Below are positions 7,962 through 32,000 of a stretch of 32,000 nt of DNA, one piece after another. The number at the start of each line of letters is the position of its first letter. Position 1 is the stretch's first letter. The stretch comes from Gemmata obscuriglobus (GTDB lineage: Bacteria; Planctomycetota; Planctomycetia; Gemmatales; Gemmataceae): assembly GCF_008065095.1 (NCBI RefSeq), contig NZ_CP042911.1, positions 4,410,001 through 4,442,000 of the forward strand, given 5' to 3'. A program made the translations under genes and the position numbers. Below the pieces are notes generated by a model. The model ran no database searches, was not told the DNA's origin, and worked only from the letters and a program-made list of their open reading frames with translations.

Positions 7962-7989
7962 TTTCATCCGGGCAACCCTCCCGCGCACA
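7962..7989 (+). promoter_or_regulatory. Conserved 21-nt box, copy 1 (TTTCATCCGGGCAACCCTCCC, plus conserved tail GCGCACA)
   Basis: One of four co-oriented copies. The CAT of the box is 33 nt upstream of ATG 7998. Function unknown; see findings. Confidence 0.6.
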
Positions 7990-7997
7990 GTGGGGGC

Positions 7998-9680
7998 ATG
8001 CCCGGCGCCGCCACCCAGCCCCGCACCGCGACCCAGCCCCGCTACTACATGCTCCGCGACGTGAACCTGTTCGCGTCGGGGGTGTACCGCGGCCGGCGCT
8101 GGTTCCCGCACTGGGTGCGGAACATGGCCGAGGCCGGGCGCAAGCTCGGCCCGGGCGGCGCGAAGCTGCACACCCCGCCAGCGGCCCCCGGGCACGAGGA
8201 CGACGAGGGGTGGCGCGAGTTCGTCCCGACCGACGAGCCCGCGGCCGGGTGGGTCGACCCCAACAGCCTCCGCGCCGTCCCGGACCCGCAGCACGCGGGC
8301 CACGTGATCCTCAAGGGGAACGTGGTCAACGTGCCCGAGGCGATGGCCCGGAAGATCGAGAGCGGCGAGTACCGGTTCGGCTCGGCCGAGATCTACGACT
8401 CGTTCCTCGACGACTTCGGCCGCAAGTACGGCAAGGTGCTGCGCAAGTTCAGCTACCTCGGCGGCGAGGTGCCCCAGGTGAAGCGCCTGGGGCCGCTCCC
8501 GCGGCCCGAGCCGATGCCCGCGCCGATGCGGTTCAGCGAGCGCCCCGGGGTGCGGATCCGGGAGCACACCGTCCGGGGCCGCCGCGGCGCCCTGATCACC
8601 TTCGCGGAGACGAGCAGAATGGACCGCCAGTCGATGATCGCCGCGATCCAGGCGGACATGCCCGGGATCAGCCAGTCCACCCTCGACGCGATGACCGACG
8701 AGGCACTCGCGGACCTGGTCAAGAACCTCCCCACCGGGGCCGGAACTCCGACGCCGCCGGCGAACCCCGCCCCCGCGCCGGCCACCGGGATGTTCGCCGA
8801 GCCGAGCCGCGAGGAGATGATCGCCGCCCTGGTGGACGAGGGCGAGGACGCGGCCGAGCTCGAGGGGATGAGCGACGAGGAGCTCGGCGCCCTGTACGAG
8901 GAAGTGATCGGCGAAAGCACCGAGACCGAGGGCGAGGGCGAGGAACCCGTTGAGACGATGGCGGACCCGGCGGCCGTGACCCGCGAGGAGATGATCGCGG
9001 ACCTGGTGGCGCAGGGGCAGGACGCGGCCGCGCTCGACGCCATGCCCGACGACCAGCTCCGCGCCCTGTACGCCCAGCTCACCGCCGACCCGCCCGCACC
9101 GCCCGCGGCCCCCGCGCCGGCCCCGGCCGCCGTCCCGATGAGCGAGCCGCGGCGCAAACCCAGGCCCAAACCCGCCACCCGCAGGGGCGTCACCGTGAAC
9201 AGCGAACTCGCGATCAAGGCGAAGCGGCTGAACGCCGCGTTGGACAACGAGTTGTCTCGGCTCCGCGTCAGCAACGAGCGGCGGAAGCGCGACGACGCGA
9301 CGAAGTTCTGCGACCAGCTCGTCTCCGAGGGCCGGGCCACCCCGGCCCAGGTGACGGCCGCGTACCTGCCGCTCTTGCTCGGGCTCGACGACACCCGGGC
9401 CGTCCACCGGTTCACCGAGAACGGCCGGACCCGCAACCTCACCGCCTACGAGGCCCGCAAGGCCCAGCTCGCGCAGATGCCGGTGACGGTCAAGTTCGGC
9501 GAGCGGTTCGCCGCCGGCCCGCCCGCCGGCGAGTTCAGCGGCGAGGCCGAGCTGGCCAAGGTGAAGCAGTTCGCCGCCGCGGCCGTGCCCGAGTCCCACC
9601 GCGAGCAGTACGTGACCAGCTTCGCCGAGCTGCAGAAGAAGAAGCCGCGGATCACGGCCAAGGAGTACGGGGCGCGCTGA
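7998..9680 (+). CDS. Mu gpI-like prohead protease/scaffold protein, with an acidic repeat-containing scaffold-like C-terminal half
   Basis: Position between MuF and the major head gene. The N-terminal block ...KIESGEYRFGSAEIYDSF...LRKFSYLGGEVPQVKRLG resembles the Mu-like prophage I protein as I remember it. The C-terminal half is acidic and helical, with three about 35-aa repeats (R-E-E-M-I-A-x-L-V...L-x-A-L-Y). A nested in-frame scaffold product, as in Mu I/Z, is possible. Confidence 0.7.
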   Translation: MPGAATQPRTATQPRYYMLRDVNLFASGVYRGRRWFPHWVRNMAEAGRKLGPGGAKLHTPPAAPGHEDDEGWREFVPTDEPAAGWVDPNSLRAVPDPQHAGHVILKGNVVNVPEAMARKIESGEYRFGSAEIYDSFLDDFGRKYGKVLRKFSYLGGEVPQVKRLGPLPRPEPMPAPMRFSERPGVRIREHTVRGRRGALITFAETSRMDRQSMIAAIQADMPGISQSTLDAMTDEALADLVKNLPTGAGTPTPPANPAPAPATGMFAEPSREEMIAALVDEGEDAAELEGMSDEELGALYEEVIGESTETEGEGEEPVETMADPAAVTREEMIADLVAQGQDAAALDAMPDDQLRALYAQLTADPPAPPAAPAPAPAAVPMSEPRRKPRPKPATRRGVTVNSELAIKAKRLNAALDNELSRLRVSNERRKRDDATKFCDQLVSEGRATPAQVTAAYLPLLLGLDDTRAVHRFTENGRTRNLTAYEARKAQLAQMPVTVKFGERFAAGPPAGEFSGEAELAKVKQFAAAAVPESHREQYVTSFAELQKKKPRITAKEYGAR

Positions 9681-9741
9681 GCCCCGCCGCCGGTGCCGGC
9701 GCCCGCACCCCTCCGACCACCACTTAACCGGGAGCGATCCT

Positions 9742-10515
9742 GTGGCCAACGCAACCGACCGGGTCAAGAAGCGCGTCGTCCGCATCCAGGACCGGTTCAT
9801 CCGCCGGTCCTCGGAGACGCTGGGCGCCGCCACCCGGTACTACCAGCACGCCCTCGTCGGCACCGACGTGACCGGGTACCTGTGCAAGGGCGACGACAGC
9901 CAGTCCTGGGTGTTCGCCGGCGTGGTCCGGGGCAACGAGGGGAACCCGCTGCTCCCGGCCGGCACCGCCGGGACCCCCGAGCTCGACCTCGACATCGAGA
10001 TGCCGTACCGGCTCGAGGTGTCGATCGCCGGGGTGGCGGTCACCGACCTCGGCAAGAAGGTGTACGCGCTCGACGACCAGACCGGCACCCTGAGCGCCGC
10101 GGCCACCACGTTCGGCAACTTCATCGGCCACGTGGTCGAGATCGTGGCCCCGGGCATCGCGCTGGTCGAGCTGTGCTACGACGGGGTCGCCGCGCACGCC
10201 CGGTACGGCGTCACCCGGGTGCTGGCCGCGACCGGCGCCCAGAGCCTCACCCGGTGCGACCTGAACAAGGTCATCATCGTCCCCAACACGGCGGCGTACA
10301 CGATCACCCTGCCGGCCGTGGCCGACACCCAGGCCGGGGACCGGCTCACGTTCGTCAAGACCACCGCCGACGCGGCCGCCGCGACCCTCGACGGGAACGC
10401 CGCCGAGACCATCGACAACGGCGCCACCCTGGCGACCATCGACGCCCGCTACGACTGCGCCGAGCTGGTCTCGACCGGCACCGAGTGGGTCGTGCTGAAC
10501 CGCGACATCGCGTAA
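9742..10515 (+). CDS. Putative head decoration/cement protein (DUF2190-like N-terminal half plus an extra beta-rich C-terminal domain)
   Basis: GTG 9742 with GGGAG upstream. Located between the scaffold and major head genes. The N-terminal pattern VFAGVV...LEVSIAGVAV...GKKVYALDD...GNFIGHVVEIVAPGIALVEL resembles DUF2190-type cement proteins, from memory. Confidence 0.55.
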   Translation: MANATDRVKKRVVRIQDRFIRRSSETLGAATRYYQHALVGTDVTGYLCKGDDSQSWVFAGVVRGNEGNPLLPAGTAGTPELDLDIEMPYRLEVSIAGVAVTDLGKKVYALDDQTGTLSAAATTFGNFIGHVVEIVAPGIALVELCYDGVAAHARYGVTRVLAATGAQSLTRCDLNKVIIVPNTAAYTITLPAVADTQAGDRLTFVKTTADAAAATLDGNAAETIDNGATLATIDARYDCAELVSTGTEWVVLNRDIA

Positions 10516-10556
10516 CCGCCCCGCCCACCCGCAAGCCCCAAGCCGGAGACGTCCCC

Positions 10557-11516
10557 GTGGAAGTGACCCAGTTCACCGCGCTGGCCCGCGCCGAGTTCGC
10601 CAAGGGCAAGCTGGCCGCCGACGAGAAGCCGTTCCCGGCCAACCACGAGCCGTTCACGTTCCGCCTCGACAGCAAGTCGAAGGTCGAGACGCACACGTAC
10701 ATGTCGAACCTGCCGCGGCTCACCGAGTTCAAGGGGTACACCCCGTTCGCGCGGCTGGTGAACAAGGAGTACACGGTCGCCAACAAGACGTTCCGGGTCG
10801 GCGTGTCGGTCAAGAAGGAGGACGTGGACGACGACCAGACGGGCGGGTACATGAGCACCATCCAGGGGCTCCCCACCCGGGCCAAGAAGGACACCGGGCA
10901 CCTGATCCTGGCGCACCTCGCGGCCGGGGCCAGCACCAAGTGCTTCGACGGCACCAACTTCTTCGCCAACAGCCACCTGTTCGGCACCGGCGACAACCTG
11001 GACACGTTCGACGCCGCGTCCAACGACGGGCAGACGCACAAGATCATCGCCCTGATCACCGACAACCCGGTGGTCAAGCCGGTGCTGTTCCAGGACCGCG
11101 AGCCGTTGAGCGCGCTGGACACCGACGCGGACGAGGCCAACGCCCGGAAGCAGAAGGAGTACGAGTACTGGGTGGACTGCCGGTTCGGGCTCGGGTACGG
11201 GTTCTGGTGGGACGCGATCCAGCTCACCATCAGCGACACCCCGACGGTGGCCGAGTGCTACGCCATCGTCGAGCAGCTGATCAACGGGTTCCGGTCGTTC
11301 AAGCTGCCCAAGGCCAACGACGTGGACGACGAGCTGTTCGTGCACGAGGGCTGGGACCCGGCCCCGGGGAACCTGGTGCTGGCGTGCAACCTGAAGCTCG
11401 GCATCATCCTCAAGCGGGCCCTGGCGCTCACCCAGTACACCGCCCCGGGCGGCAACGTGGACAACGTGTACAAGGACGTGGCCACCGTGCTCCCGACCAG
11501 CGCGCTCGGCGCCTGA
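10557..11516 (+). CDS. Major head (capsid) protein, Mu gpT-like family
   Basis: GTG 10557 with GGAG 8 nt upstream. The block LPRLTEFKGYTPFARLVNKEYTVANKTFRVGVSVKKEDVDDDQTGGY...CFDGTNFFANSHLFG parallels Mu gpT (REWIGDR..K.L....Y.I.N..FE.TV.V...DIEDD..G.Y....CYDGQNFFDTDHP), as I recall it. Confidence 0.9.
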   Translation: MEVTQFTALARAEFAKGKLAADEKPFPANHEPFTFRLDSKSKVETHTYMSNLPRLTEFKGYTPFARLVNKEYTVANKTFRVGVSVKKEDVDDDQTGGYMSTIQGLPTRAKKDTGHLILAHLAAGASTKCFDGTNFFANSHLFGTGDNLDTFDAASNDGQTHKIIALITDNPVVKPVLFQDREPLSALDTDADEANARKQKEYEYWVDCRFGLGYGFWWDAIQLTISDTPTVAECYAIVEQLINGFRSFKLPKANDVDDELFVHEGWDPAPGNLVLACNLKLGIILKRALALTQYTAPGGNVDNVYKDVATVLPTSALGA

Positions 11517-11549
11517 CCCGGGGCCGCCCTTCGCACCCGAGGAGCCGCC

Positions 11550-12026
11550 GTGCCCACCTTCGTCAGCGACGAGCAGCTCCGCGCCCAGGTCACCGCGGCC
11601 AACGCCATGCGGGACGCGGCGCTCCCGGACCACTGGGACGCGCTCCTGCCGACGGCGAACCAGCGCGGGTACAACGACGTCCGCCGCATCATGCGCGGCC
11701 GCGGCATGACCGGCGCCGAGTTCGCCCTGTTCGGGGCCGACGCGACCACCGAGGGGTACGACTGGAACCTGCGGTTCGCGGTCGTGCACGCCTTCCTCGA
11801 GGCGTGCCGCTCGGACCCCGAGGCCGTCGCCGCGTTCCGCCAGGAGCTGGCCGACCTCACGGAGGACCTCGCCGGGGCCGACGTGATGCTGGGCGACGAC
11901 GTGTGGGCGCCCGCACCCGGGTCCGCGCGGATCTCGTGCGGCGACTCCGACACGTCGGGCGACCGGTTCCGGCTGGACGATCCGGACGACGGGCGGTTCT
12001 CCTTCGGGGACGGCACGAGGCTGTAG
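11550..12026 (+). CDS. Hypothetical protein (158 aa). By position it is a head completion/connector candidate.
   Basis: GTG 11550 with GAGGAG upstream. G/C-rich third codon positions. It sits between the major head and gpG-like genes. No family recognised. Confidence 0.6.
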   Translation: MPTFVSDEQLRAQVTAANAMRDAALPDHWDALLPTANQRGYNDVRRIMRGRGMTGAEFALFGADATTEGYDWNLRFAVVHAFLEACRSDPEAVAAFRQELADLTEDLAGADVMLGDDVWAPAPGSARISCGDSDTSGDRFRLDDPDDGRFSFGDGTRL

Positions 12027-14699: not shown

Positions 14700-15731
14700 T
14701 TATTGTCTTCTTGGTGCGGCATAATTGCAATTTATGAGCGTGTGCAATAAATCTTGAACAGATCGTAAAAGTGTTAAGGCTTTATTGCGCTGTTCTTGAG
14801 AATTGTTGGGTTGGGTTGTTGACGAGGCGCCAACTGATGCTAGCGCGTAAGATGGGCCGGGTCGAGCGCCTTCCAGGATGCTCAGCAGTTCCGCGCGGGC
14901 TTCGCTAGCTTCGGAACTTGGGTCGATATGCAATTTGATTTTTGAAACGAAATCCTCAACTCGTTTTCGCGTCTCCTCAAGGCGGGTAGCATGCGCCCAT
15001 TGTCCTGGTGGGCTTTCGCTGATTGTGCTGATCATACTGGCTACGTGTTGGACCATTTCGCTTGCTTCGAGCCTGATTTGCTGCTCTGGCCTAAAGAGGG
15101 TCGAATTTTTGGCCATATCCTCGCGGGCAAGGAGAAAAATGGCCGAGGCCAATTCCTGCTTCACCGCTTTCGGGTCGCCGTCCCCCATACCCCGGTTCGA
15201 TCCGGTAGCCTGCCCAACTGAGTTGTAGTGCTCCCACAAGGCCGAGAGCGCGCCGATGAGGGCCGTACGTGACGCTGTGTCCGCTTGACGTGCGGCTTCG
15301 GTTCGGGCGAGCCTCATTTCTTCTTGTGTTTCAGCCAATGACTTTCTCTGCAACCACATCGTGTAAATCAGCACAGCTAGAGCGAGCGCCGAAAACAGCG
15401 CATTGATCGCGCCGAACATGTCCCCGAACTGACCGCGAGCGGCGTGGGCTCTGTCGATAGCTTGGGCCTTCGCAGAGACACGCTCTTTCTCGACCGATGT
15501 CGCATTCGGGTCCGTAACGATTAGTGATTCATCCGGCTTGAAGGCATTTACGATCAACGCCCAATAGACCCCCCAGGCCAACACAACGATGAATGCTGTC
15601 GCAAAGAAAAACAGCAGGGGTGCATTGTGCGCGGTTGGGCGATTCGTCTCAGCCACTTGGTAACCCTCGTATTGAGTCAGCACTTTCGCGCGCACGCGGG
15701 CTTGCGCCAACTCCGTTTCCCCAACTTTCAT
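14700..15731 (-). CDS. Two-TM membrane protein with an about 210-aa helical C-terminal domain; antisense moron 2 in an AT-rich island
   Basis: TM1 is LLFFFATAFIVVLAWGVYWALIV and TM2 is FGAINALFSALALAVLIYTMW, followed by a charged helical tail. GC and codon usage differ strongly from the rest of the window, with many A/T-ending codons. The start is ATG 15731 (inside 21-nt box copy 2) or GTG 15752. No family recognised. Confidence 0.7.
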   Translation of the reverse strand: MKVGETELAQARVRAKVLTQYEGYQVAETNRPTAHNAPLLFFFATAFIVVLAWGVYWALIVNAFKPDESLIVTDPNATSVEKERVSAKAQAIDRAHAARGQFGDMFGAINALFSALALAVLIYTMWLQRKSLAETQEEMRLARTEAARQADTASRTALIGALSALWEHYNSVGQATGSNRGMGDGDPKAVKQELASAIFLLAREDMAKNSTLFRPEQQIRLEASEMVQHVASMISTISESPPGQWAHATRLEETRKRVEDFVSKIKLHIDPSSEASEARAELLSILEGARPGPSYALASVGASSTTQPNNSQEQRNKALTLLRSVQDLLHTLINCNYAAPRRQ

Positions 15732-15752
15732 CCGGGCAACCCGCCCCCGCAC
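15726..15752 (+). promoter_or_regulatory. Conserved 21-nt box, copy 2 (TTTCATCCGGGCAACCCGCCC, plus CCGCAC)
   Basis: Same orientation as the other copies. The CAT is 74 nt upstream of the tail tube ATG 15803. CCAACTC lies 12 nt upstream here and 13 nt upstream at copy 1. Confidence 0.6.
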
Positions 15753-15802
15753 ACTAAAGCCTCACCGGGCCGCGTGTTCCGCTTGGGGGTGAGGGCGCTA
15801 CG

Positions 15803-16678
15803 ATGGCGGACAAGGTCGGCGTGTTCAACCGCTTGCTGTACGCCGGCTCCGGCGTTACCACGGCCACGCACGAGTTCGAGTTCCTCGAAGGCTCGACGCT
15901 GGGCCTCTCTGAGAACTTCATCGACACGAACGGCATCCGGGGTACCCGCTCGCACAGCTCCGAGCGGGTGCGGCGCGGGACCCGGCGGGTCGACGGCCAG
16001 ATCATTCTGGCCCCGACGCCGGTCGAGCTCGCCGTCTGGCTGCCGCTGATCCTGGGCGGCACGCCCTCGGGCACGAGCTACCCGCTCGGCGAGAACCTGC
16101 CGCTGTTCAACCTGTTCGGCGTGCGGGACGGGACCGTGTACACGTACTCGGACTGCGTCGTCACGAACGCGACGTTCAGCGCGTCCGAGGGCGGCCCGAT
16201 GCAGCTGTCGCTGACGATCATCGGCAAGGACGAGACCCAGTCCGGCTCCGCCGGCGCCGCGACCATCGACCTGACCACGCAGCCGTTCGTGCTGCACGAC
16301 GCGGTGGTGTCGGTGGGCGGCTCGAACCGCGAGGTGGCGAGCTTCTCGCTCGCGATCGACAACGTCGTCGAGGCCAAGTTCCGCAACTCGGCGACGATCA
16401 CCCAGCTCAAGGCCACCGACCGCAACGTGACCGTCGACCTGCCGGTGAGCCTCGGGACCGACGCGGCGCTGTACGGCTCGGCCGTCGGGGGCGTGGCCAC
16501 GACGCTCACGCTCACCAACGGGGGCTGCTCGCTGACCTTCTCCATGACCAAGGTGCAGGCCCCGAAGCAGCCGCTCCCGTTCGGCCAGCGGGGCATTCTG
16601 GACCTGCCCTGGCGCGGCGTCGCCCGCAAGGACGGCGCCACGCCGGAGCTCACCACCACACTGGACAGCACCCCATGA
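15803..16678 (+). CDS. Putative major tail (tube) protein, siphovirus type
   Basis: It sits directly upstream of the G/GT chaperone pair and the tape measure. It is beta-rich and 291 aa long, with an N-terminal pattern THEFEFLEGSTLGLSENFIDTNGIRGTRS...VDGQIILAPTPVEL reminiscent of phage tube proteins. No sheath gene is present. Confidence 0.6.
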   Translation: MADKVGVFNRLLYAGSGVTTATHEFEFLEGSTLGLSENFIDTNGIRGTRSHSSERVRRGTRRVDGQIILAPTPVELAVWLPLILGGTPSGTSYPLGENLPLFNLFGVRDGTVYTYSDCVVTNATFSASEGGPMQLSLTIIGKDETQSGSAGAATIDLTTQPFVLHDAVVSVGGSNREVASFSLAIDNVVEAKFRNSATITQLKATDRNVTVDLPVSLGTDAALYGSAVGGVATTLTLTNGGCSLTFSMTKVQAPKQPLPFGQRGILDLPWRGVARKDGATPELTTTLDSTP

Positions 16679-17402: not shown

Positions 17403-19186
17403 CCCCGGCCCAAAAGCAACTCGAGCTGCGCCTCAAGGTCACGGCCGACGTGGCCGACGCGCAGCGGAACCTCCAGCAGCTCGCGACCGCCGCCCAGCAG
17501 ACGCACGGCCGGGCCGCCGGCCCCCAGGGCTTCGGCGGCTACGTTCCGCCGCCCGGCTTCGGGGCGCCGGGGCAACCGCCGGCCCCGGCGGCGGGCGGCG
17601 CGGTGCCGCGCCCCGGCCCGTTCACCTCGGCGGTGCCGGCGTTCGACCGCCCGGTCCCGGTGGTGATCGTCGGGCCGAAGCCGCTGCACGTCACCGGAAC
17701 GGGCGGCGCGGGTGCCGGCCCCGGGGGCGGGGCCGGGGGCAAGAGCGCGGGCGACAAAGAAAAGGAGCGGCACGAGGCGCTGCTGACCTCGTTGCGGAAC
17801 CTCCAGCTCGGGGGAACCGTCGGACGGTACGAACAGATCAAGGGGTTCGGCGAGGCCGCGGGCAAGCTCGGCCTCCCCGGCGGGGCGCTGCTCGGCCGCC
17901 TGGCCGGCCCGGCGGCGATCGCCCTGGGCGCGCTGCAGGTGGCGGGCGACGCCGGGGAGATCCTCAGCGACGAGTACACGACCGGCGAGCAGAAGGGCCG
18001 GGCGGCGGTGCGGAAGTTCGTCCCCTTCGGCGAGACCATCCAGAGCTCGATCGACGGGCTGACCGGGCGCAAGGCCGGGATGGAGCGGGCCGAGGTGGAC
18101 TACCAGAAGCAGATGGCCGAGGTGAGCGCGCGGGCCGAGAAGGCGTCGTTCGACCTGGGCTACCGCCCCGAACAGGCCGGGTACGAGGCGCGCGAAACGC
18201 TGCTCGCCCGCGCGACACCGATCCTGGAGGGGGCGAGCGACCGCACCACCGCCGCCGGCGAGAAGGCGTTCCGGGACCGGCAGCGGCTGCTGCCGATCGA
18301 GCGCGAGGAGGCGAAGCTCCAGCGCGAGGCGGCCGTCGCCACCGCGCAACGCGCCAGCGCCGAGGCGGCGCTGGGCGACATCCAGGCCAAGCGGGCCGAG
18401 GCGGCGCGGCGCGAGCAGCAGAAGGGCCGGGAGCTGGGGGGCGACGGCCGCCCGCTCCTGCCGACCGCGGTTTCGTTACTGGCCTTCGGGCCGGTGACGC
18501 ACGCGCTCTTGGGGGGCCGGGGGACGTACGACGCGAACCAGTCCGGCGTGTCCCGCCAGCGCACCCTGTACGAGCAGGCGGCGGCGGGGGCCGAGGCGCA
18601 GCAGCTCGGCGAGCTCGAGAAGCAGGCCCGCCGCGCGGTGGTCGAGGCCCGCCGCCGGGAGGCCGAGACCGGGCGATCTGCCGGACAGGCCCGAGTGCAG
18701 CGCCTCCAGGCCGAGGCCGACATCCTTGATGGGGACGCCTCCCAGGCGGCCTCGGGCGCGCAGTCGCTCGGCGGAATGGATCGCTTCTCACGTGCGAACG
18801 CCGTGCGCTCGCTGCAGCTGCTGCAGCAGTTCGGCCCGGAGCGGATGAGCCCCCGCGAGCTGGCCGAGGCGCGCGCGGTCGCCCCACAAACGGTGGCGAA
18901 GATCCTCGAGCAGGCGGGCAAGCAGACGCCCCAGTTCGACGCCCTCCGCGCGCTCGCGCCCGCGGACTACGCCGGCGACCCGGAAGAACTGCGCCGCAAA
19001 GCGCAGGAGAAGCGCGACGAGGCCGCCCAGAAGGAGCTCGACCTCGATCGCACCCTTGCGACCAAGGTCGCGGCGGCCGGGCGCGACCTCGGCAAGTACA
19101 TCGGCGACATCATCGACCAGATCGCCGACGAGATCAAAAAAGGGATCGACCGCGACAAGCGGATCGGACGGGGGGCCAGCAGCTAG
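17399..19186 (+). CDS. Tape measure protein (595 aa)
   Basis: It follows the G/GT pair. It is long, Ala/Gly/Arg/Glu-rich and helical, with Gly-rich tracts. The rule of thumb of about 0.15 nm per residue predicts a tail of roughly 90 nm. Confidence 0.8.
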   Translation: MTPAQKQLELRLKVTADVADAQRNLQQLATAAQQTHGRAAGPQGFGGYVPPPGFGAPGQPPAPAAGGAVPRPGPFTSAVPAFDRPVPVVIVGPKPLHVTGTGGAGAGPGGGAGGKSAGDKEKERHEALLTSLRNLQLGGTVGRYEQIKGFGEAAGKLGLPGGALLGRLAGPAAIALGALQVAGDAGEILSDEYTTGEQKGRAAVRKFVPFGETIQSSIDGLTGRKAGMERAEVDYQKQMAEVSARAEKASFDLGYRPEQAGYEARETLLARATPILEGASDRTTAAGEKAFRDRQRLLPIEREEAKLQREAAVATAQRASAEAALGDIQAKRAEAARREQQKGRELGGDGRPLLPTAVSLLAFGPVTHALLGGRGTYDANQSGVSRQRTLYEQAAAGAEAQQLGELEKQARRAVVEARRREAETGRSAGQARVQRLQAEADILDGDASQAASGAQSLGGMDRFSRANAVRSLQLLQQFGPERMSPRELAEARAVAPQTVAKILEQAGKQTPQFDALRALAPADYAGDPEELRRKAQEKRDEAAQKELDLDRTLATKVAAAGRDLGKYIGDIIDQIADEIKKGIDRDKRIGRGASS

Positions 19187-20064
19187 CGCTCCCGGCCCGC
19201 CGAGTCGAGGGCCGCGGCGGAAATATCTTGTGGGCCGAAATCGGCCTTGGGCGCTGCGCTCGCCACGCGCTGCGCGAACGCCTTTCGCTCTTCGGCCGGC
19301 AGAAGGGCGGAGGTGGCCCACACGCGGACCAGCAGCTCGGCCTCCTGCTCGGCCGAGGAGGCCGAGCCTGCTTGTTTGCGGGCGAGGTGCCACAGGGGCG
19401 GCTTCTCCGGCCCGTCCGCCATGCCCGCTTTTGCGGCGCTCGCGAACGCCAACTGATTCAGCCCCACATCCTGAAGAAGCACGTAGTCACTCGCGAGCGG
19501 GGACGACGCGCGTTGGAACAGCTCCATGTTGACCCCGACCGCAACGAGCTGGGGCTCGGGCAACCGACTCAGCTGTGCCTCGGTGCGGCCGGAATCGCCA
19601 CGGATCGAGAAGCCGGCAAATTGAGACGCGGATCGTTTGACGGCTTCGCGATCCGCTCGCGACGGCACGGGGCCGACACGAAGCAGCCCGACGGTCACCG
19701 GGGCGACCCTCTCAGCCCGTTGGACGCTGAGTTCATCCGATCGCTCGATTCCCACTTTCTGCACCCGCAGGAGAGCGTCCACGCAGGACGATCGTTCGCC
19801 CTGGCTCATCCCGCCAAGGGCTTGCGCCGACCGTGAGCTGAGGGCCGCCTGGACGCTCAGCCGTTCGGCCTCCCCGTACCCCGAGGCGATATCCACCCGT
19901 TTTTTCGCGAGGGCCAGCACCGGCCCCCATTCTGGGGCTTTAGATTCGTTCGTGTTCGGCTTTTTAGAAGAAGGCTGCGATGTGGCGGCGCCGCGCTGCG
20001 TTGGTCGGGAAGTGTCGCAACCGAGAACAGTGAACAGGGCGATGACGGCAAAGGGCCAGCGCAT
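19183..20064 (-). CDS. Lipoprotein of unknown function; antisense moron 3
   Basis: MRWPFAVIALFTVLGC gives a signal peptide with an L-G-C lipobox, followed by a Ser/Lys/Pro-rich linker. GC is lower than in the flanks. Its stop overlaps the tape measure stop inside the palindrome GCTAGC (19182-19187). Confidence 0.7.
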   Translation of the reverse strand: MRWPFAVIALFTVLGCDTSRPTQRGAATSQPSSKKPNTNESKAPEWGPVLALAKKRVDIASGYGEAERLSVQAALSSRSAQALGGMSQGERSSCVDALLRVQKVGIERSDELSVQRAERVAPVTVGLLRVGPVPSRADREAVKRSASQFAGFSIRGDSGRTEAQLSRLPEPQLVAVGVNMELFQRASSPLASDYVLLQDVGLNQLAFASAAKAGMADGPEKPPLWHLARKQAGSASSAEQEAELLVRVWATSALLPAEERKAFAQRVASAAPKADFGPQDISAAALDSAGRER

Positions 20065-20219: not shown

Positions 20220-20247
20220 TTTCATCCGGGCAACCCGCCCCGCGAAG
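20220..20247 (+). promoter_or_regulatory. Conserved 21-nt box, copy 3 (TTTCATCCGGGCAACCCGCCC, plus CGCGAAG)
   Basis: Same orientation as the other copies. The CAT is 33 nt upstream of ATG 20256, the same spacing as copy 1. Confidence 0.6.
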
Positions 20248-20255
20248 CTGAGCGC

Positions 20256-28639: not shown

Positions 28640-28648
28640 ACGCAAAAA

Positions 28649-28678
28649 GCCCCCGGCGGGATCTCTCCCGCCGGGGGC
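28649..28678. terminator. Bidirectional terminator hairpin between convergent genes
   Basis: Perfect 13-bp stem GCCCCCGGCGGGA / TCCCGCCGGGGGC with a TCTC loop. An A5 run precedes it (a T-run for the - strand) and a T-containing tail follows it. It starts 10 nt after the stop at 28639. Confidence 0.7.
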
Positions 28679-28691
28679 TCTCGTATGGAAT

Positions 28692-28711
28692 CGCCCCGGA
28701 CAACCGGGGCG
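28692..28711. terminator. Second GC hairpin (CGCCCCGG-ACAA-CCGGGGCG)
   Basis: Perfect 8-bp stem with a tetraloop, 19 nt beyond the stop of the leftward gene ending at 28730. It belongs to the CCCCGG/CCGGGG hairpin family seen after every leftward gene. Confidence 0.45.
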
Positions 28712-28729
28712 GTCAAGCGGAACGGTCAG

Positions 28730-28969
28730 TCACTTCTTCCGGTCGGGCCTGTTCGGACGCAGTCCCCGCGGGTCCGCGGGGTACTCGCCGCCGTCGGACA
28801 GATCCCGTACCCGCGCCAGACACGATTCCGGATCCAGGGCCGGCAGAACTTCCACCTCGCCCCACCCCCGGACGTGCCGGTCCAGCCAGTACCGGCCGCC
28901 GGCTTTGAGGCGCGCGAGCGCGGCCCTCATCGCCCGCTGCTCCCGCTGCCACTCGCGGTACGTGTCCAT
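28730..28969 (-). CDS. Small hypothetical protein (79 aa)
   Basis: ATG 28969 has GGGAGGGA 5 nt upstream and is preceded by leader type A. G/C-rich third codon positions. The longer track ORF (to 29053) merely translates the conserved leader. Confidence 0.6.
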   Translation of the reverse strand: MDTYREWQREQRAMRAALARLKAGGRYWLDRHVRGWGEVEVLPALDPESCLARVRDLSDGGEYPADPRGLRPNRPDRKK

Positions 28970-28976
28970 CCCGTCC

Positions 28977-29040
28977 CTCCCTTGACTCCCCGTTGCTGGA
29001 CTTGTCACCAGCGTTCCACCGCGGAACGGTCGGGTTAAGG
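28977..29040 (-). repeat. Leader type A, copy 1
   Basis: A 37-nt block is identical to 30763-30799 (CTCCCTTGACTCCCCGTTGCTGGACTTGTCACCAGCG). It is followed by a hairpin whose stem differs from copy 2 by two compensatory pairs, then GGTCGGGTTAAGG. Confidence 0.7.
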
Positions 29041-29062
29041 GCCGGGGCCACAAGGCCCCGGC
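29041..29062. terminator. GC hairpin GCCGGGGCC-ACAA-GGCCCCGGC
   Basis: Perfect 9-bp stem 4 nt downstream (in - sense) of the stop of 29067..29399. Confidence 0.5.
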
Positions 29063-29066
29063 GGTG

Positions 29067-29399
29067 TCACGGGCCGGCGAGCCGCCGCACCCGCGGCGCC
29101 GCGCCCCGCTCGCGCAGGGCGTGGGACGGGTGCGTGACCCGCGCCGGCCGGTCCTCCGGCGCGAGCCGCCGGTCCTCGCGGGCGGCCTCGAGCGCGGCCC
29201 TCCGGGGCACGTCGCCCAGGAGCCCGCGGTCGCCGGCCAGCGCCGCGCACAGCAGGCGCACCGCGCACGCCGCGTGGAGCCCCACGAACACCAGGTGCAC
29301 GCCCGCCGGCCCGGCCCGCCCGGTGAGCCCGGCGTGGGCCGAGCTGCACGTGCCGCCGGCGAACACCAACCCCAACAGCAGCTGAAGCGCCTTCCTCAC
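29067..29399 (-). CDS. Small membrane/secreted protein (110 aa)
   Basis: GTG 29399 with GGAGGG 6 nt upstream. N-terminal signal-like helix MRKALQLLLGLVFAGGTCSSAHA and a second hydrophobic helix. Very G/C-rich third codon positions. Confidence 0.6.
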   Translation of the reverse strand: MRKALQLLLGLVFAGGTCSSAHAGLTGRAGPAGVHLVFVGLHAACAVRLLCAALAGDRGLLGDVPRRAALEAAREDRRLAPEDRPARVTHPSHALRERGAAPRVRRLAGP

Positions 29400-29523
29400 G
29401 AACGGCCCTCCGTCGACAGGAACCCGGCTCTGCGTTGCACGGGCTGGCCACCGTTCCCCGGCCCGCGCCGGGGAGCCGCATTACGGCCCCGCGGCCCCGG
29501 GAAACCGGGGCCGCGGCGGGCGC
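29400..29523 (-). repeat. Intergenic module type B, copy 1
   Basis: Blocks: CTCTGCGTTG (29428-29437); CACGGGCTGG; perfect 8-bp palindrome 29455-29462/29467-29474; GCCGCATTA (29475-29483); 12-bp hairpin 29489-29500/29505-29516 with a GAAA loop. Confidence 0.65.
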
Positions 29524-30396
29524 TCAGTCGCGCCCGCAGTAGCCGTGGAGCTTGCACCCCGCGGCCCGCAAGATGGCGCTGGCCTCGAGGCGGGTCTTGG
29601 CCGTCCGGACCCGGGCCCACACCTTGGCCGCACGGCGGTACGCCTCGCTGCCGCTCTGCCGGCTCGGGGTGATCTCCATCCACTCGTTCACGTCGTCGAG
29701 ATCGCGGATCGTCACGCCCGTCTCGTCCGCGCCGGCGGACCACGCGCCGGGGACCCCCGCCGTCAGCGGCACCGCCGGGGCGTCGACGCCCCGGATCTGT
29801 TCGTCGCGGACCACGATCCCGTACACCCGCGCCGCCTCCGGGTCGCCCGCGGTGTACGCCGCGAGCCGGGCGAGCAGCTCGGCCCGGAGCGCGTCGAAGT
29901 CGGTGTGCAGGCTGATCCCGTCGAGCCAGTGGCAGACGCCCTGGCAGAACCCGCCGCACCGGTCCTCGGGCGTGCCCGGGCGCGCGGCCCCGGCGCCCCA
30001 GCCGTTGAACCGGAGCACGCGGCAGGTCTTGCCGCGCTTCCCGGCGTTGGCCATGTCCGTGACCGTCGCGGTCCCGCTGCCCGGCCACGTCCGCGTGTGG
30101 ACGCGGGGCGGGGTCACGTGCTGTCGCAGCAAGCTGGCGGCCCGTTCGCCGCACGTGTCCGGTTGCGGGTTGTCGTCCAGGTAGTCGGCGAGCACCTCCT
30201 CGCCCCGCTGCTCCGCAATCACCGCCCGCGCCAGCGCGACCGCCTCCGGGTCGTCGCTGACCCAGCTCGGGCCGCGGCCGCCCGCGAGCGGGTACACGCT
30301 CGCCGCGAGGCCGCCGTCCCGCCACGGGCCGACGCGGACGTGCACGCCGTTCACGTCCGCCGTCTGCTCCCGGGGCGTTGCTTCCGTTGTCACCAT
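29524..30396 (-). CDS. Hypothetical protein (290 aa), Cys-containing, unknown function
   Basis: ATG 30396 with GGAGG 8 nt upstream. G/C-rich third codon positions. Bracketed by type B modules. No family recognised. Confidence 0.65.
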   Translation of the reverse strand: MVTTEATPREQTADVNGVHVRVGPWRDGGLAASVYPLAGGRGPSWVSDDPEAVALARAVIAEQRGEEVLADYLDDNPQPDTCGERAASLLRQHVTPPRVHTRTWPGSGTATVTDMANAGKRGKTCRVLRFNGWGAGAARPGTPEDRCGGFCQGVCHWLDGISLHTDFDALRAELLARLAAYTAGDPEAARVYGIVVRDEQIRGVDAPAVPLTAGVPGAWSAGADETGVTIRDLDDVNEWMEITPSRQSGSEAYRRAAKVWARVRTAKTRLEASAILRAAGCKLHGYCGRD

Positions 30397-30518
30397 CTGA
30401 AAACCTCCGTTCGTTCACCCCCCTCTGCATTCGCTCCGGGCTTGGGACCGGCGCCGCGGCGCGTGCCGCGGCGGCTGCATTACGGCCCGCGGCCCCCGGG
30501 TTCGGGGGCCGCGTCGGG
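30397..30518 (-). repeat. Intergenic module type B, copy 2
   Basis: Blocks: CTCTGCATTC (30423-30432); CTCCGGGCTTGG; perfect 9-bp palindrome 30452-30460/30465-30473; GCTGCATTA (30474-30482); 10-bp hairpin 30489-30498/30503-30512. Confidence 0.65.
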
Positions 30519-30755
30519 CTAGTTGCGCGTCATGTCGAGCGTGGCCCGCCAGTCGTCCCACGGGTCGAGCGGGCGCGTCGCGTAGTCCCACCGCAGCGCG
30601 GTCCGCTGCAGCGCCTCCACGTCCGCCACCGTCTCGCACCCCCGGAGCCGTTCGGAGAGGGCCTCGTGGTCCTCGTCCTCGCACAGGATCCCGCGGTCCA
30701 GGTTCCCCTGGATCCGCCGCTTCATCTCGCAAAGCGCCTCGTCGTCGGCTTGCAT
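30519..30755 (-). CDS. Small acidic hypothetical protein (78 aa)
   Basis: ATG 30755 with GGGAGG upstream, preceded by leader type A copy 2. The longer track ORF (to 30794) translates the leader. Confidence 0.6.
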   Translation of the reverse strand: MQADDEALCEMKRRIQGNLDRGILCEDEDHEALSERLRGCETVADVEALQRTALRWDYATRPLDPWDDWRATLDMTRN

Positions 30756-30762
30756 GAGCAGC

Positions 30763-30828
30763 CTCCCTTGACTCCCCGTTGCTGGACTTGTCACCAGCGC
30801 CCCACCGTGGGGCGGTCGGGTTAAGGGC
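30763..30828 (-). repeat. Leader type A, copy 2
   Basis: See copy 1. The hairpin here is CGCCCC-ACCGT-GGGGCG (30798-30814), against CGTTCC-ACCGC-GGAACG (29012-29028) in copy 1. Confidence 0.7.
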
Positions 30829-30854
30829 CGCGGCCCCGGTTTCCCGGGGCCGCG
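30829..30854. terminator. GC hairpin CGCGGCCCCGG-TTTC-CCGGGGCCGCG
   Basis: Perfect 11-bp stem 4 nt downstream (in - sense) of the stop of 30859..31107. It has the same stem as the hairpin at 29489-29516, with the loop in the opposite orientation. Confidence 0.55.
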
Positions 30855-30858
30855 ATCG

Positions 30859-31107
30859 TCACGTCGTCCGGGCCGGCCCGTCGAGGAACCGGTCCCACAG
30901 CGGCTTCAGGGCCGCCGCCACCACCCCGACCAGGCACCGCCCGTAAGCGAACCCGAGCACCAGGTGGAGCAGCAGGTGCCCGACCCGCGCGCCGACCGGG
31001 GCCGCCTCGACCGCGGCCGCCGGCGCCACCGCCTTGAGCGAGGTGATCAGGAACCACACCAGGGCCGCCCCCAGCGCCCACCCCGCCACGTTCTTCACCG
31101 CTTGCAT
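30859..31107 (-). CDS. Small membrane protein (82 aa, 2-3 hydrophobic helices). A holin-like or other membrane function is possible.
   Basis: ATG 31107 with GGGAGGGG upstream. Hydrophobic helices: VAGWALGAALVWFLITSL and HLLLHLVLGFAYGRCLVGVVAAAL. G/C-rich third codon positions. Confidence 0.6.
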   Translation of the reverse strand: MQAVKNVAGWALGAALVWFLITSLKAVAPAAAVEAAPVGARVGHLLLHLVLGFAYGRCLVGVVAAALKPLWDRFLDGPARTT

Positions 31108-31213
31108 TCCGAACCCCTCCCGCGCTCTGCATTCACCCGGGCTTGCGACCGGCCGCGGTTCTAGCCGCGGGCTGCATTAAGAGGGCGGGGGCCTCGGAGG
31201 CCCCCGCCGCGGG
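31108..31213 (-). repeat. Intergenic module type B, copy 3
   Basis: Blocks: CTCTGCATTC (31125-31134); ACCCGGGCTTGCG; CCGCGG-TTCTAG-CCGCGG (31153-31170); GCTGCATTAA (31171-31180); 9-bp hairpin 31185-31193/31199-31207. Confidence 0.65.
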
Positions 31214-31420
31214 TCACCAGTTCCGGCCCTTGTTGCCCCAGGCCCGGTAGCCCTCGGCCAGGAGCAGGCAGATGAGCTTGCGCTCGTTCTCCGTCTCCCC
31301 CCGGAGCGTCGGCACGTAGCCGCCGTCCAGCGCCGCCTTCAGCTCGTCCCAGGTGTCGAACGCGGTCACCGCGTTCACCAGCCGGTCCTTGATCTCGCCC
31401 GGCAGTTCGGCCTTGCACAT
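31214..31420 (-). CDS. Small hypothetical protein (68 aa); first gene of the leftward operon
   Basis: ATG 31420 with GGGGAGGG 7 nt upstream. It lies downstream of the AT-richer divergent control region. No family recognised. Confidence 0.6.
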   Translation of the reverse strand: MCKAELPGEIKDRLVNAVTAFDTWDELKAALDGGYVPTLRGETENERKLICLLLAEGYRAWGNKGRNW

Positions 31421-31490
31421 CGCCAGACCCTCCCCGGGAACGCACGCGGGCGGCCCGAGTGGCCGCCCGTCGCACGCCCCAACGGGACGA

Positions 31491-31581
31491 ATACTAGCGA
31501 ATCACTAGTGACGAGCGAAGAAAAATCGCTGGCGAATTTCTAGGCCGACACTAGTGACGCCGGGGCGGGGCCGCGTAGAGT
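31491..31581. promoter_or_regulatory. Divergent promoter/operator region: two perfect CACTAGTGAC palindrome-containing sites plus one degenerate copy, overlapping candidate leftward and rightward sigma70-like promoters
   Basis: CACTAGTGAC occurs at 31503-31512 and 31549-31558, and ACTAGCGA at 31492-31499. Leftward candidate: -10 TAGTAT (complement of 31491-31496) with a 17-nt spacer that contains operator 1. Rightward candidate: -35 GTGACG (31554-31559), 16-nt spacer, -10 TAGAGT (31576-31581). This is the AT-richest non-coding patch apart from the moron island. Confidence 0.4.
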
Positions 31582-31618
31582 GGGCGGGGCACTGCGGTGG
31601 CGCGGACGAGGGGCGGAC

Positions 31619-31888
31619 ATGGCGAAGCGGACGCGGCCCCGGCAGAACGTGGCCGGGGCCAAGCAGTTCAACTACGAGATCGACGGGGCGCTCGCGGACC
31701 GGTTCCGGCAGTTCTGCCGGGACCGCGGGGAGACGATCGTCGGCCACCTGGAGATGGCGCTGCGGCGGCACATGGACAACCCGCCGCCGGTGCCGGTGCT
31801 GCCCCCGCTCCCGCCGGTGCCGGCGCCCGCACCCCCGGCGAGCGGGGCGAAGGCGCGCGGGCGCGCGCCGAAGCCGAAGAGCGATTGA
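31619..31888 (+). CDS. Ribbon-helix-helix (CopG/Arc/MetJ-like) DNA-binding protein with a Pro-rich basic tail. Candidate repressor of the divergent region.
   Basis: ATG 31619 with GAGGGG upstream. FNYEIDGALADRFRQFCRDRGETIVGHLEMALRRHM fits the beta-strand/helix/helix RHH layout. Overlapping track ORFs on both strands were rejected. Confidence 0.7.
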   Translation: MAKRTRPRQNVAGAKQFNYEIDGALADRFRQFCRDRGETIVGHLEMALRRHMDNPPPVPVLPPLPPVPAPAPPASGAKARGRAPKPKSD

Positions 31889-31978
31889 GCCGGTGGAGGC
31901 GCGAGTTGGTTCCGAGGAATTCAGAGCCGGGTGAGGTGGCCGACTTCCCATCCGCGGGCGCGCGAGCGCGCGCCCCAC

Positions 31979-32000
31979 TTCCATCCGGGCAACCCGCCCG
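31979..32000 (+). promoter_or_regulatory. Conserved 21-nt box, copy 4 (TTCCATCCGGGCAACCCGCCC), truncated context at the window edge
   Basis: Same orientation as copies 1-3. It lies 91 nt after the RHH gene stop and is preceded by the GC palindrome GCGCGC-GA-GCGCGC. Confidence 0.55.

Follow-up and report, generated by a model that had tools for sequence, protein, structure and literature searches.

In Gemmata obscuriglobus, the forward-strand units of a Mu-like prophage head-tail gene cluster are each headed by a box with the invariant core CATCCGGGCAACCC. We lean towards the view that this box represents positions -36 to -20 of dedicated promoters, some of them leaderless, and that a specific activator or sigma factor reads the set; a putative tandem AP2-domain protein encoded behind one of the copies is the candidate. 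If this is correct, the set would be the first promoter class defined in this poorly understood bacterial group.

The box within and beyond the window

The stretch of DNA that was analysed, 32,000 nucleotides long and referred to here as the window, had been described in a first-pass annotation as carrying four copies of a 21-nucleotide box, all in one orientation and each at the head of a forward-strand module. All four proved to be exact matches to TTYCATCCGGGCAACCCKCCC, on the forward strand only (Table 1). There were no further matches in the window with up to three mismatches and none in 100 dinucleotide shuffles, so that the chance expectation is zero and degenerate, intermediate copies are absent from the window. 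A scan for the 17-base core with up to five mismatches, over a range that ends before the window end and the fourth copy, returned the perfect copies and five matches with five mismatches, the latter at chance level (mononucleotide shuffles gave a mean of 7.7 matches). Since perfect and chance-level matches alone were seen, a box in this range is present in perfect form or not at all. The conserved core is 17–21 bases long, asymmetric and without dyad symmetry.

The gene context that had been described around the copies was also borne out. The module labels hold (phrog_976 protease, Phage_tube_2, the major head protein gpT and Mu F), copies 1–3 each follow an antisense gene and copy 4 follows a small gene. 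The label of ribbon-helix-helix (RHH) protein given to the small gene product by the earlier reader is unconfirmed, as a family search with that product gave no match. The antisense genes before copies 1–3 have a lower GC content; in the first of them it is 0.645, compared with approximately 0.73 nearby, and this gene is absent at the orthologous position of a Gemmata sp. locus (L137).

Table 1. Positions of the boxes, hexamers, genes and neighboring features, in window coordinates.
Feature	Position	Strand	Details
Box copy 1	7962..7982	+	TTTCATCCGGGCAACCCTCCC; exact match; heads head module; would span -36 to -16 of the candidate promoter
Box copy 2	15726..15746	+	Exact match; heads tail tube module
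Box copy 3	20220..20240	+	Exact match; heads distal tail module
Box copy 4	31979..31999	+	TTCCATCCGGGCAACCCGCCC; exact match; next gene, 144 nt downstream, encodes the putative tandem AP2-domain protein
-10-like hexamer CACAGT	7986..7991	+	Copy 1; identical in orthologue L137 despite differing neighboring bases
-10-like hexamer CACACT	15750..15755	+	Copy 2; predicted +1 at 15762; 41-nt leader with GAGGG before ATG 15803
-10-like hexamer GAAGCT	20244..20249	+	Copy 3; A2 and T6 kept, rest differs
Hexamer CACCAT	32003..32008	+	Copy 4; just past the window end
Head maturation protease/scaffold gene (Mu gpI-like)	7998..9680	+	phrog_976, E 1.6e-21; no Shine-Dalgarno at proper distance; leaderless candidate
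Tail tube gene	15803..16678	+	PF18906 Phage_tube_2, E 1.2e-23; NCBI "phage tail tube protein", GobsT_37730
First distal tail module gene, 243 aa	20256..20987	+	Gene call in three assemblies; no Shine-Dalgarno; leaderless candidate
Antisense gene, 144-aa call	7394..7828	-	Upstream of copy 1; signal-peptide-like N terminus MNRLCFCVLAALF...
Antisense membrane-protein gene	14700..15731	-	343-aa call in Logan contig L260; sequence and translation; gene callers' ATG is the complement of the box CAT of copy 2
Antisense 293-aa gene	19183..20064	-	Upstream of copy 3; gene calls
Hairpin GCCGCACC-GATT-GGTGCGGC	7922..7954	+	Just before copy 1; T6 follows after 7 nt; read from sequence
GC hairpin GGGCGCGC-GAGC-GCGCGCCC	31956..31975	+	Ends 3 nt before copy 4; sequence and folding
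Small gene, GobsT_37890	31619..31888	+	Upstream of copy 4; reading frame
Small-gene control region	31503..31581	+	CACTAGTGACG twice (31503..31513, 31549..31559)
Canonical-looking promoter GTGACG-16 nt-TAGAGT	31554..31581	+	Ahead of small gene; read from sequence

A hairpin lies directly upstream of copies 1, 3 and 4. The one before copy 1, which may act as a stop for upstream read-through, was not listed by a terminator scan because its T run is set off from the stem, making it non-canonical. At the place in a paralogous locus that corresponds to the hairpin of copy 4 there is a hairpin of different bases. The control region of the small gene is laid out in the same way in a metagenomic phage (L279) and, as judged from its bases, the promoter within it shows that ordinary promoters here differ from the box.

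Two further copies were found in the same genome, both co-oriented with the downstream genes. The fifth, c0, is an exact copy located approximately 2 kb to the left of the window (contig L261, position 9338), where the cluster's first gene follows after 80 nt, and the sixth belongs to a paralogous cluster (L278, position 10359). Neither c0 nor copy 4 has an adjoining antisense gene, and about 430 nt upstream of c0 are conserved in G. algarum. The right arms of the two clusters are 95–98% identical, which shows recent exchange between them.

The box is also kept in other Gemmata species and in one metagenomic phage; a metagenome scan found no relatives. In a scan across 185,579 species, four of the five Gemmata matches among those listed were orthologues or likely counterparts of the cluster copies. 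The fifth (L238) looks like a chance match and lacks the downstream signature. When G. obscuriglobus is aligned with other Gemmata species, homology starts at the box, the antisense gene upstream not being common to both: the alignment with L179 begins with the first base of the box, and at L137, where the counterpart of copy 1 is conserved with one change, homology resumes 5 nt before it. Gemmata genomes also hold interspersed repeats, such as a family of approximately 100 nt to the left of the cluster.

A hexamer at fixed distance and candidate leaderless messages

Similarity had been reported to continue for a few bases past the box. It is real, and an alignment of 11 copies, numbered from T1 to C17 of the core, resolves it into a hexamer at a fixed place. 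The 17 bases are invariant in this alignment and positions 18–24 are variable, after which nAnnnT (mostly CACAsT) occupies positions 25–30 in 10 of the 11 copies. A26 and T30 are kept in these 10 even where the other bases have changed, as in the GAAGCT and CACCAT of copies 3 and 4. In a G. algarum copy that resembles copy 4 the hexamer is displaced by about 4 nt.

The first-pass annotation saw no fit of the box to sigma-70, sigma-54 or ECF promoters. For sigma-70 this is correct in that the box does not consist of a -35/-10 pair, and a consensus scan of positions 7000–21000 called no canonical site, with TTGACA-like and TATAAT-like hexamers 16–18 nt apart, at any box, but positions 25–30 do keep the A and T of a -10 hexamer. 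Compared with TATAAT, only A2, often A4, and T6 are kept. The absence of the first T of TATAAT, together with a -35-like part that matches TTGACA at only two to three of six positions, counts against a promoter. The other two exclusions stand. A sigma-54 promoter, TGGCAC-N5-TTGC with GG and GC exactly 10 nt apart, was rejected as the distance from the G run to GC varies by 1–2 nt among copies 1, 3 and 2 and there is no TTGC. An ECF promoter, which pairs an AAC-containing -35 with a CGT-type -10, was rejected since, although the box contains GCAAC, nothing is conserved 16–17 nt past the AAC, and the hexamer begins only 10 nt after it.

The spacings that had been given for the CAT within the box, 33 nt before the ATGs at 7998 and 20256 and 74 nt before the ATG at 15803, are correct. 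The A of the ATG takes position 37 of the box numbering after copies 1 and 3 and likewise at L137, the orthologue of copy 1. This places nAnnnT at -12 to -7, counted from the ATG, in all three, and each lacks the GGAG/GAGG Shine-Dalgarno that is present in approximately 70% of about 60 nearby genes. A -10 hexamer 6–7 nt before a start codon that has no Shine-Dalgarno is the arrangement of leaderless mRNAs, and putative leaderless transcripts are the best explanation of the 33-nt spacing. That ATG 7998 is the start codon is supported by L137, which differs by an in-frame indel of 15 nt and by a synonymous change. Public contigs that begin right after copy 2 were considered as transcript 5' ends and were dismissed as assembly breaks, and thus an artefact.

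Based on these observations, we propose that the box would be the upstream recognition half of a promoter heading each forward-strand unit of the cluster. Positions 25–30 would be its -10 hexamer, keeping the two bases that a -10 element of the sigma-70 family needs, and transcription would start at position 37, such that the box would cover the -35 region and the upstream half of the spacer. The predicted +1 positions are 7998, 15762, 20256 and 32015, the last in sequence past copy 4 that was taken from contigs L256/L257. As the A of the ATG falls on position 37 after copies 1 and 3, the messages there would be leaderless; those from c0 and from copies 2 and 4 would have leaders of 41–108 nt with Shine-Dalgarno-like sequences. 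The weakness of the -35-like and -10-like parts relative to the nearby canonical promoter, along with the asymmetric and invariant 17 bases, suggests that a dedicated factor is needed. This factor could be an alternative sigma factor or an activator that stands in for -35 recognition, and it would turn on all the units together.

A late activator or sigma factor had been among the roles first suggested for the box. The comparative evidence (copies at unit heads, the additional c0 and sixth copies, the homology boundary and the hexamer at fixed distance) favors it, with transcription starts that we infer.

A candidate factor and the alternative readings

A search of the element for a sigma factor or late activator, which had been advised, yielded one candidate, and no match to the Mor/C family of activators was found in Pfam, PHROGs or NCBIfam among the scanned cluster proteins, although such an activator may be encoded elsewhere in the genome. 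The candidate is a protein of 166/168 residues with putative tandem AP2 domains (UniRef name AP2/ERF), encoded directly behind copy 4. Its own searches of Pfam, PHROGs and NCBIfam gave no match. The top three hits of a PDB sequence search were ERF AP2 domains (AtERF1, ERF096), all weak (E 0.13–0.17). The predicted model (pLDDT 79.8) has two AP2-like repeats, and its top Foldseek match, also weak (E 0.025, prob 0.85, TM 0.29), was DNA-bound WRINKLED1, a double-AP2 protein. A homologue of 56% identity in a metagenomic temperate phage is preceded by TCCCATCCGGGCAACCC-N7-CACACT, and the gene is always found behind its own box, at three loci of which two are recent paralogues. We therefore consider this protein the best candidate for the dedicated factor; it would bind and activate at the boxes and would also drive its own synthesis.

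The phage AP2 proteins characterised so far are silencers, not activators, and recognize G/C-rich motifs in a sequence-specific manner (bioRxiv 10.64898/2026.02.23.707548). These silencers, the CasPRs, repress and carry extra CapR domains. This precedent speaks for an alternative that we consider unlikely, in which the box is a repressor operator and a prophage protein, possibly the AP2 protein, silences the late genes in the lysogen, either by occluding a promoter or by stopping polymerases that arrive from upstream or from the antisense genes. The boxes directly follow genes that are likely expressed in the lysogen. They also resemble the stoperators of L5 and Bxb1, which are asymmetric sites of 13–17 bases, present in multiple copies in one orientation to transcription within short intergenic gaps of temperate phages. 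Stoperators are bound by the immunity repressor, spread through operons and have no set relation to a -10 hexamer or start codon. In contrast, there is one box per unit head, in fixed register to hexamer and ATG, and there are five per cluster compared with tens of scattered sites per genome in L5. In addition, the promoter implied here is weak by the local canonical standard and would need help, not repression. This alternative overlaps with the promoter set that we prefer, as the box lies within a promoter in both.

It is decidedly unlikely that the box acts on elongating polymerase or on RNA, in the manner of ops/RfaH, lambda nut or HK022 put. A single late promoter would then lie upstream of c0, where the segment conserved in G. 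algarum could hold it, and the boxes would reload an antitermination factor or mark a processing site, allowing transcription or translation to proceed beyond the antisense genes and hairpins. Like ops/JUMPstart and nut, the box is short, linear, asymmetric and orientation-dependent and stands before each of a series of long operons, with hairpins just upstream of three copies. Targets of the RfaH type typically lack a Shine-Dalgarno, which is also missing from the genes that follow copies 1 and 3. However, ops and nut work once transcription has been initiated from a promoter upstream of them, whereas here the ATG register favors a start site, and an ATG exactly 7 nt after nAnnnT in three copies would be left without a reason. 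The end of interspecies homology exactly at the 5' edge of the box also speaks against this reading. Neither a NusG paralogue nor another antiterminator was found among the scanned cluster proteins. The copies share no RNA structure, with ordinary fold z-scores in four of five, and Rfam 15 at gathering score returned no match in the window, L256 or L261. The conserved leader or processing site that had also been suggested thus finds no support from folding or Rfam.

The breakpoints of interspecies homology at the box, with different genes inserted just upstream, and the near-identical right arms could also suggest a junction for the exchange of modules or antisense genes that has no role in expression. 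We consider this very unlikely. Seventeen bases would be little for homologous exchange, the scanned cluster proteins included no recombinase, the fixed hexamer and ATG register would be unexplained, and two copies adjoin no antisense gene. The breakpoints themselves do not discriminate, as a promoter is also a natural 5' limit of a conserved unit. A generic host-wide, REP-like repeat that lies in intergenic gaps by chance, another of the earlier suggestions, is hardly credible even though interspersed repeats do occur in Gemmata: the box has no dyad symmetry, no copy was seen in approximately 22 kb of flanking host DNA, every copy points the same way as the genes after it, the metagenome scan gave no relatives, and the matches in two other Gemmata genomes (at least two in each, among those listed) are few and all cluster-linked.

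Comparison with known systems

The plant double-AP2 factors WRINKLED1 and ANT recognize asymmetric sites of approximately 14–17 bp, and AP2 domains, whose fold is a three-stranded sheet packed on a helix with a YRG/RAYD-type motif, prefer G/C-rich motifs. The candidate factor shares their two AP2-like repeats, albeit with weak statistics, and we infer its binding to the box.

T4 middle promoters combine a MotA box at about -30 with a sigma-70 -10 element. The promoters proposed here would be similar, with a box centered near -28 to -30 that replaces the -35, a -10 of ordinary type and a putative phage factor. They differ in that no MotA/AsiA homologue was seen, the box has 17 bases compared with nine, and host and phage type are other.

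The Mu late promoters Plys, PI, PP and Pmom are activated by protein C, whose site is a dyad centered near -43. The box does not fit a C-type site: it is asymmetric and would extend from -36 to -20, and in copies 1 and 3 its end is separated from the ATG by 16 nt, which rules out a center at -43. The sequences are unrelated, a Mor/C-family gene is missing from the scanned proteins and leaderless messages would arise from two of the units here. The architecture, by contrast, resembles that of Mu: a Mu-type head-tail set is divided into several units, each headed by the same element in five co-oriented copies, and this element would replace a good -35 and be joined to a -10 hexamer. One copy heads an accessory operon at the right end. 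Another, copy 1, is followed by the gpI-like protease gene; in Mu, the late promoter P_I has the corresponding place before the protease gene of gpI type.

Distribution and setting of the box

The first-pass annotation had described four co-oriented copies of a conserved box, and this observation is real and non-random. Scanning the window with the pattern TTYCATCCGGGCAACCCKCCC returned exact matches at these four places only (see table), with no additional match even at three mismatches and none in 100 dinucleotide-preserving shuffles. When the 17-mer was searched at up to five mismatches, in a scan that covered copies 1–3 and had copy 4 outside it, the perfect copies were found along with just a few five-mismatch matches at chance level. 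In the lack of intermediate copies, the box is either perfect or absent.

A fifth exact copy was found in the complete-genome locus L261 (CP025958.1), which reaches 11.4 kb left of the window. It precedes the gene that opens the cluster, with the portal gene next in order. To its left are host-type small genes and an IS transposase, and no box was found in that part of L261. The stretch of approximately 430 nt leading up to the fifth copy is conserved in G. algarum (L207) and holds three copies of CGCACAATAACACGG, about 50–100 nt apart, that could be binding sites or element-end repeats. A sixth copy lies in a second, paralogous G. obscuriglobus cluster (GobsT_63450/63460; loci L275 and L278), which is 95.5–97.6% identical to window 24653–32000 and carries its own box ahead of its own AP2 gene, the counterpart of the putative tandem AP2-domain gene behind copy 4. 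All six copies are co-oriented with the genes that follow. The paralogous cluster, near GobsT_634xx, shares the right arm (L278 is ABGO01000052.1) and the two clusters differ further left; beyond copy 4, draft contig ABGO01000002.1 may combine sequence from both loci as a chimera.

Window DNA is approximately 73% G+C, and its lower-GC patches coincide with the three antisense genes upstream of copies 1–3. Protein families matched in the cluster included Mu F, the Mu-like major head protein gpT, a virion morphogenesis protein and Phage_tube_2, and exact-protein look-ups identified the portal as GobsT_37570, the tube as GobsT_37730 and, ahead of copy 4, the small gene as GobsT_37890. Nothing recognisable as a terminase, MuA/MuB transposase, integrase, lysis gene or Mor/C gene turned up across the ~37-kb cluster (L261 9300 to window 32000, and on to locus L257). 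The cluster genes are intact and have orthologues in another Gemmata species at 70–85% amino-acid identity; for two G. obscuriglobus genes, dN/dS measured against the Gemmata sp. orthologues was 0.43–0.46, which is not decisive given the extreme codon bias. The cluster could be a defective prophage or, as it is kept in several Gemmata species with no terminase, transposase or integrase in view, a domesticated particle-producing element.

Several other features of the region were recorded. The portal gene begins 1,407 nt beyond the left edge of the window and encodes 1,831 residues, of which 89–439 match Portal_Mu and the other 1,400 have no Pfam match; UniRef labels the protein ParB/sulfiredoxin domain-containing. 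The family-2 glycosyltransferase gene (892 aa) at the tail end of the cluster is also present in the paralogous cluster. A direct repeat of ~74 nt, 38 nt of it exact (CCTCCCTTGACTCCCCGTTGCTGGACTTGTCACCAGCG), sits in two gaps between small minus-strand genes, and the hairpin CGCGGCCCCGGGAAACCGGGGCCGCG occurs in opposite orientations on either side of the small minus-strand gene block. Left of the cluster, small minus-strand genes, among them two SMI1_KNR4 genes, are interspersed with a repeat of ~100 nt that is present in at least 12 copies; copies in another Gemmata species (L179) are 90–95% identical.

Coordinates of the box copies and associated features (window positions unless a locus is named)
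Feature	Position	Strand	Remarks
Box copy 1	7962–7982	+	Start site predicted at 7998
Box copy 2	15726–15746	+	Start site predicted at 15762
Box copy 3	20220–20240	+	Start site predicted at 20256
Box copy 4	31979–31999	+	Start site predicted at 32015
Fifth box copy	L261 9338–9354		80 nt before ATG of 172-aa coiled-coil protein gene
Conserved ~430 nt	L261 8912–9337 (window about -2500 to -2070)		
Portal gene	1–4089 (L261 10001–15496)		
Head maturation protease gene	7998–9680	+	Protein family search
Called ATG, antisense 343-aa membrane protein	15729–15731	-	Complement of box CAT
Glycosyltransferase gene	25961–28639	+	
Direct repeat, ~74 nt	28976–29049; 30762–30835		Third copy, paralogous cluster, L278 9142–9215
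Hairpin	29490–29517; 30827–30854		Opposite orientations
Divergent control region	31421–31618		Between 68-aa minus-strand gene and 89-aa gene
Control region of similar layout	L279 7990–8100		Metagenomic temperate phage
Right arm of paralogous cluster	L278 3381–10380		
Interspersed repeat, ~100 nt	L261 1800–8600		
Operon region behind AP2 gene, with S8 subtilase	L256 1864–4323		G. obscuriglobus locus
Operon region behind AP2 gene, with trypsin-like protease	L279 9508–13188		
Copy-1 orthologue	L137		Gemmata sp.
Fifth-copy orthologues	L179, L207		Gemmata sp., G. algarum
Match resembling copy 4	L170		G. algarum

To follow the box beyond G. obscuriglobus, 185,579 species genomes, one per species, were scanned. 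Of at least 120 matches, the 120 listed were mostly chance and came from species other than G. obscuriglobus, five of them from other Gemmata. One of these five, L238, is without the downstream signature and appears to match by chance. BLAST showed that interspecies homology begins at the box, from its first base in L179 and from 5 nt before it in L137, and the 920 nt upstream of the box in L137 are unrelated to the antisense gene in the window. The box is therefore part of the downstream unit, preceded by antisense genes that are variable insertions. Viral contigs scanned with the 14-mer, the 17-mer and a box-plus-CAC pattern gave chance-like single matches only, protein-based searches of viral contigs with the protease and AP2 family found no relatives, and all ten matches to box-N7-CAC in metagenomes were in unrelated coding DNA. 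With no further relatives among the viral and metagenome contigs scanned, the element appears confined to Gemmata-type hosts.

Anatomy of the predicted promoter

In an alignment of 11 copies anchored on the box and numbered from its first base, CATCCGGGCAACCC was invariant and the first three bases were TTT, TTC or TCC. Positions 18–24 were freely variable, and positions 25–30 read nAnnnT in 10 of the 11 copies (CACAGT, CACACT, GAAGCT or CACCAT). The hexamer of the G. algarum copy was displaced by about four bases. The -10 hexamers of sigma-70-family factors require two bases, A2 and T6, the pair kept here. If the hexamer at 25–30 serves as the -10 element, transcription would start at position 37 and the box would span -36 to -20.

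Copies 1 and 3, and the orthologue of copy 1, have the A of an ATG at position 37. Support for 7998 as the true start comes from L137, where an in-frame indel of 15 nt and a synonymous change lie directly behind the ATG. A GGAG or GAGG at the right distance was found for about 70% of the ~60 nearby gene starts checked and was absent ahead of the genes after copies 1 and 3. These observations fit leaderless copy-1 and copy-3 messages, and a leaderless start at position 37 would explain the exact 33-nt spacing reported in the first-pass annotation, whose box-to-ATG distances were correct. The fifth copy and copies 2 and 4 would instead give leaders of 41–108 nt with Shine-Dalgarno-like sequences. 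For Planctomycetes, a comparative study based on one species reported a scarcity of Shine-Dalgarno genes together with indications of leaderless or S1-dependent initiation (PMC5397173).

The box was earlier said to fit no sigma70, sigma54 or ECF consensus; for sigma70 this is partly correct, given the A and T retained in the hexamer. A consensus scan of window 7000–21000 called no sigma-70 site at any box, and in the aligned copies sigma-54, ECF and hrp-box readings were all rejected on spacing. By comparison, a canonical-looking promoter, GTGACG-16-TAGAGT, precedes the small gene at 31619 and overlaps with CACTAGTGACG, which is present twice, indicating that ordinary promoters in G. obscuriglobus differ from the box. 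The control region that holds this promoter resembles an immunity switch, and the metagenomic temperate phage L279 shows that layout as well, though with GTAGCTACA as the repeat.

A single sigma domain normally reads fewer bases than the 17 over which the asymmetric box is invariant. Together with the sigma mismatches, this argues for an activator that replaces -35 recognition, or for an unusual sigma factor. On balance, and with somewhat better than even confidence, we interpret the box copies as a set of dedicated promoters that co-regulate the units of a planctomycete Mu-like element, with two units probably leaderless. The earlier suggestion of a late activator or alternative sigma factor target is favoured by the single co-oriented copy per unit and the homology boundary. 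A Mor/C gene was not found among the cluster proteins scanned, and no regulator was identified among the small right-end proteins with Pfam, PHROGs or NCBIfam.

Other readings of the box

An operator or stoperator-like site would occupy the same location as the predicted promoter and predicts repression; we consider it unlikely, as so weak an implied promoter points towards activation. An element acting on elongating polymerase or in RNA, like ops, nut or put, would fit how the copies are oriented, the conserved 430 nt ahead of the fifth copy, and the hairpins that directly precede copies 1, 3 and 4. However, it leaves the ATG register and the sharp 5' homology boundary unexplained, and a search for shared RNA structure, an Rfam match or, among the cluster proteins scanned, a NusG-like protein found none. 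The box regions had no Rfam match, and folds of five copies had no common structure and ordinary z-scores, except for the copy-4 leader. We judge this explanation to be unlikely, slightly more so than an operator, and the RNA leader or processing site proposed earlier gains no support from the Rfam and folding results. A recombination boundary is very improbable, and the host-wide repeat raised in the first-pass annotation is scarcely credible, with no box in ~22 kb of host flanks.

Two further candidates were rejected. The complement of the box CAT is an ATG, but an antisense reading as a start codon opens a real gene at copy 2 alone, with frames of only 27 and 12 codons at copies 1 and 3. 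At copy 2 this ATG is the gene callers' start for the antisense membrane protein; should this start hold, the start codon of an oppositely oriented gene would fall within copy 2. In addition, five Logan contigs start at 15746, the last base of copy 2, and could be taken for transcript ends. The adjoining contig ends at 15774, an overlap of 29 nt in a k=31 assembly graph, and the same overlap rule accounts for a break at the 38-nt repeat (30762–30799). These are DNA assemblies broken where the paralogous clusters diverge, and thus say nothing on transcription.

The candidate AP2 protein and comparison with known systems

The gene 144 nt past copy 4 encodes a 166/168-aa protein assigned to AP2/ERF in UniRef. 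A profile of 12 homologues had the AP2 domains of AtERF1 and ERF096 as its top PDB matches, both weak (E 0.13–0.17), and the top fold match of the AlphaFold model (pLDDT 79.8) was double-AP2 WRINKLED1 on DNA (E 0.025, probability 0.85, TM 0.29). Ahead of the AP2 homologue in L279, which is only 56% identical, stands TCCCATCCGGGCAACCC again, followed by seven variable bases and then CACACT; the rest of that intergenic region is unrelated. Every AP2 gene of this family with readable upstream DNA has its own box. This pattern fits an autoregulated AP2 reader of the box, and equally fits the AP2 gene being merely another regulon member. Characterised phage AP2 proteins silence transcription (bioRxiv 10.64898/2026.02.23.707548), so the sign of an AP2 effect on the box could be either. 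The AP2 gene is followed by an operon with a secreted-type serine protease, a subtilase in G. obscuriglobus and trypsin-like in L279, which could be a conserved induction or lysis module.

We speculate, tentatively and with clear doubt, that the bacterial or phage tandem AP2 protein, with its predicted plant developmental transcription factor fold, is a dedicated activator that would read the asymmetric 17-base box as a -35 substitute and drive its own gene and all five head-tail operons, two of them leaderless, in what could be a domesticated particle-producing system. Should the AP2 protein read the box, it would join the rare bacterial AP2 transcription factors whose regulon is known.

In the literature searched, no promoter class has been defined for Gemmata and nothing relevant was found on Gemmata promoters or Mu-like prophages. 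Box and hexamer make up a compact predicted promoter of ~36 bases with six natural variants and start sites predicted to the base, and may offer a switchable expression signal for Gemmata, whose genetics remain hard.

A shared late-promoter box is well known as a kind in phages; this instance, its geometry and the possible AP2 reader are new. In T4 middle promoters an activator replaces -35 recognition, the arrangement proposed here for the box. The four C-dependent late promoters of phage Mu follow the same logic, with one shared box per late unit and one before the gpI-type protease gene, although the Mu C site and the box differ in symmetry and position and their sequences are unrelated. 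A Mu-type element far from the proteobacteria would thus have kept the Mu logic of one shared box per late unit with an unrelated sequence and, probably, an unrelated factor.
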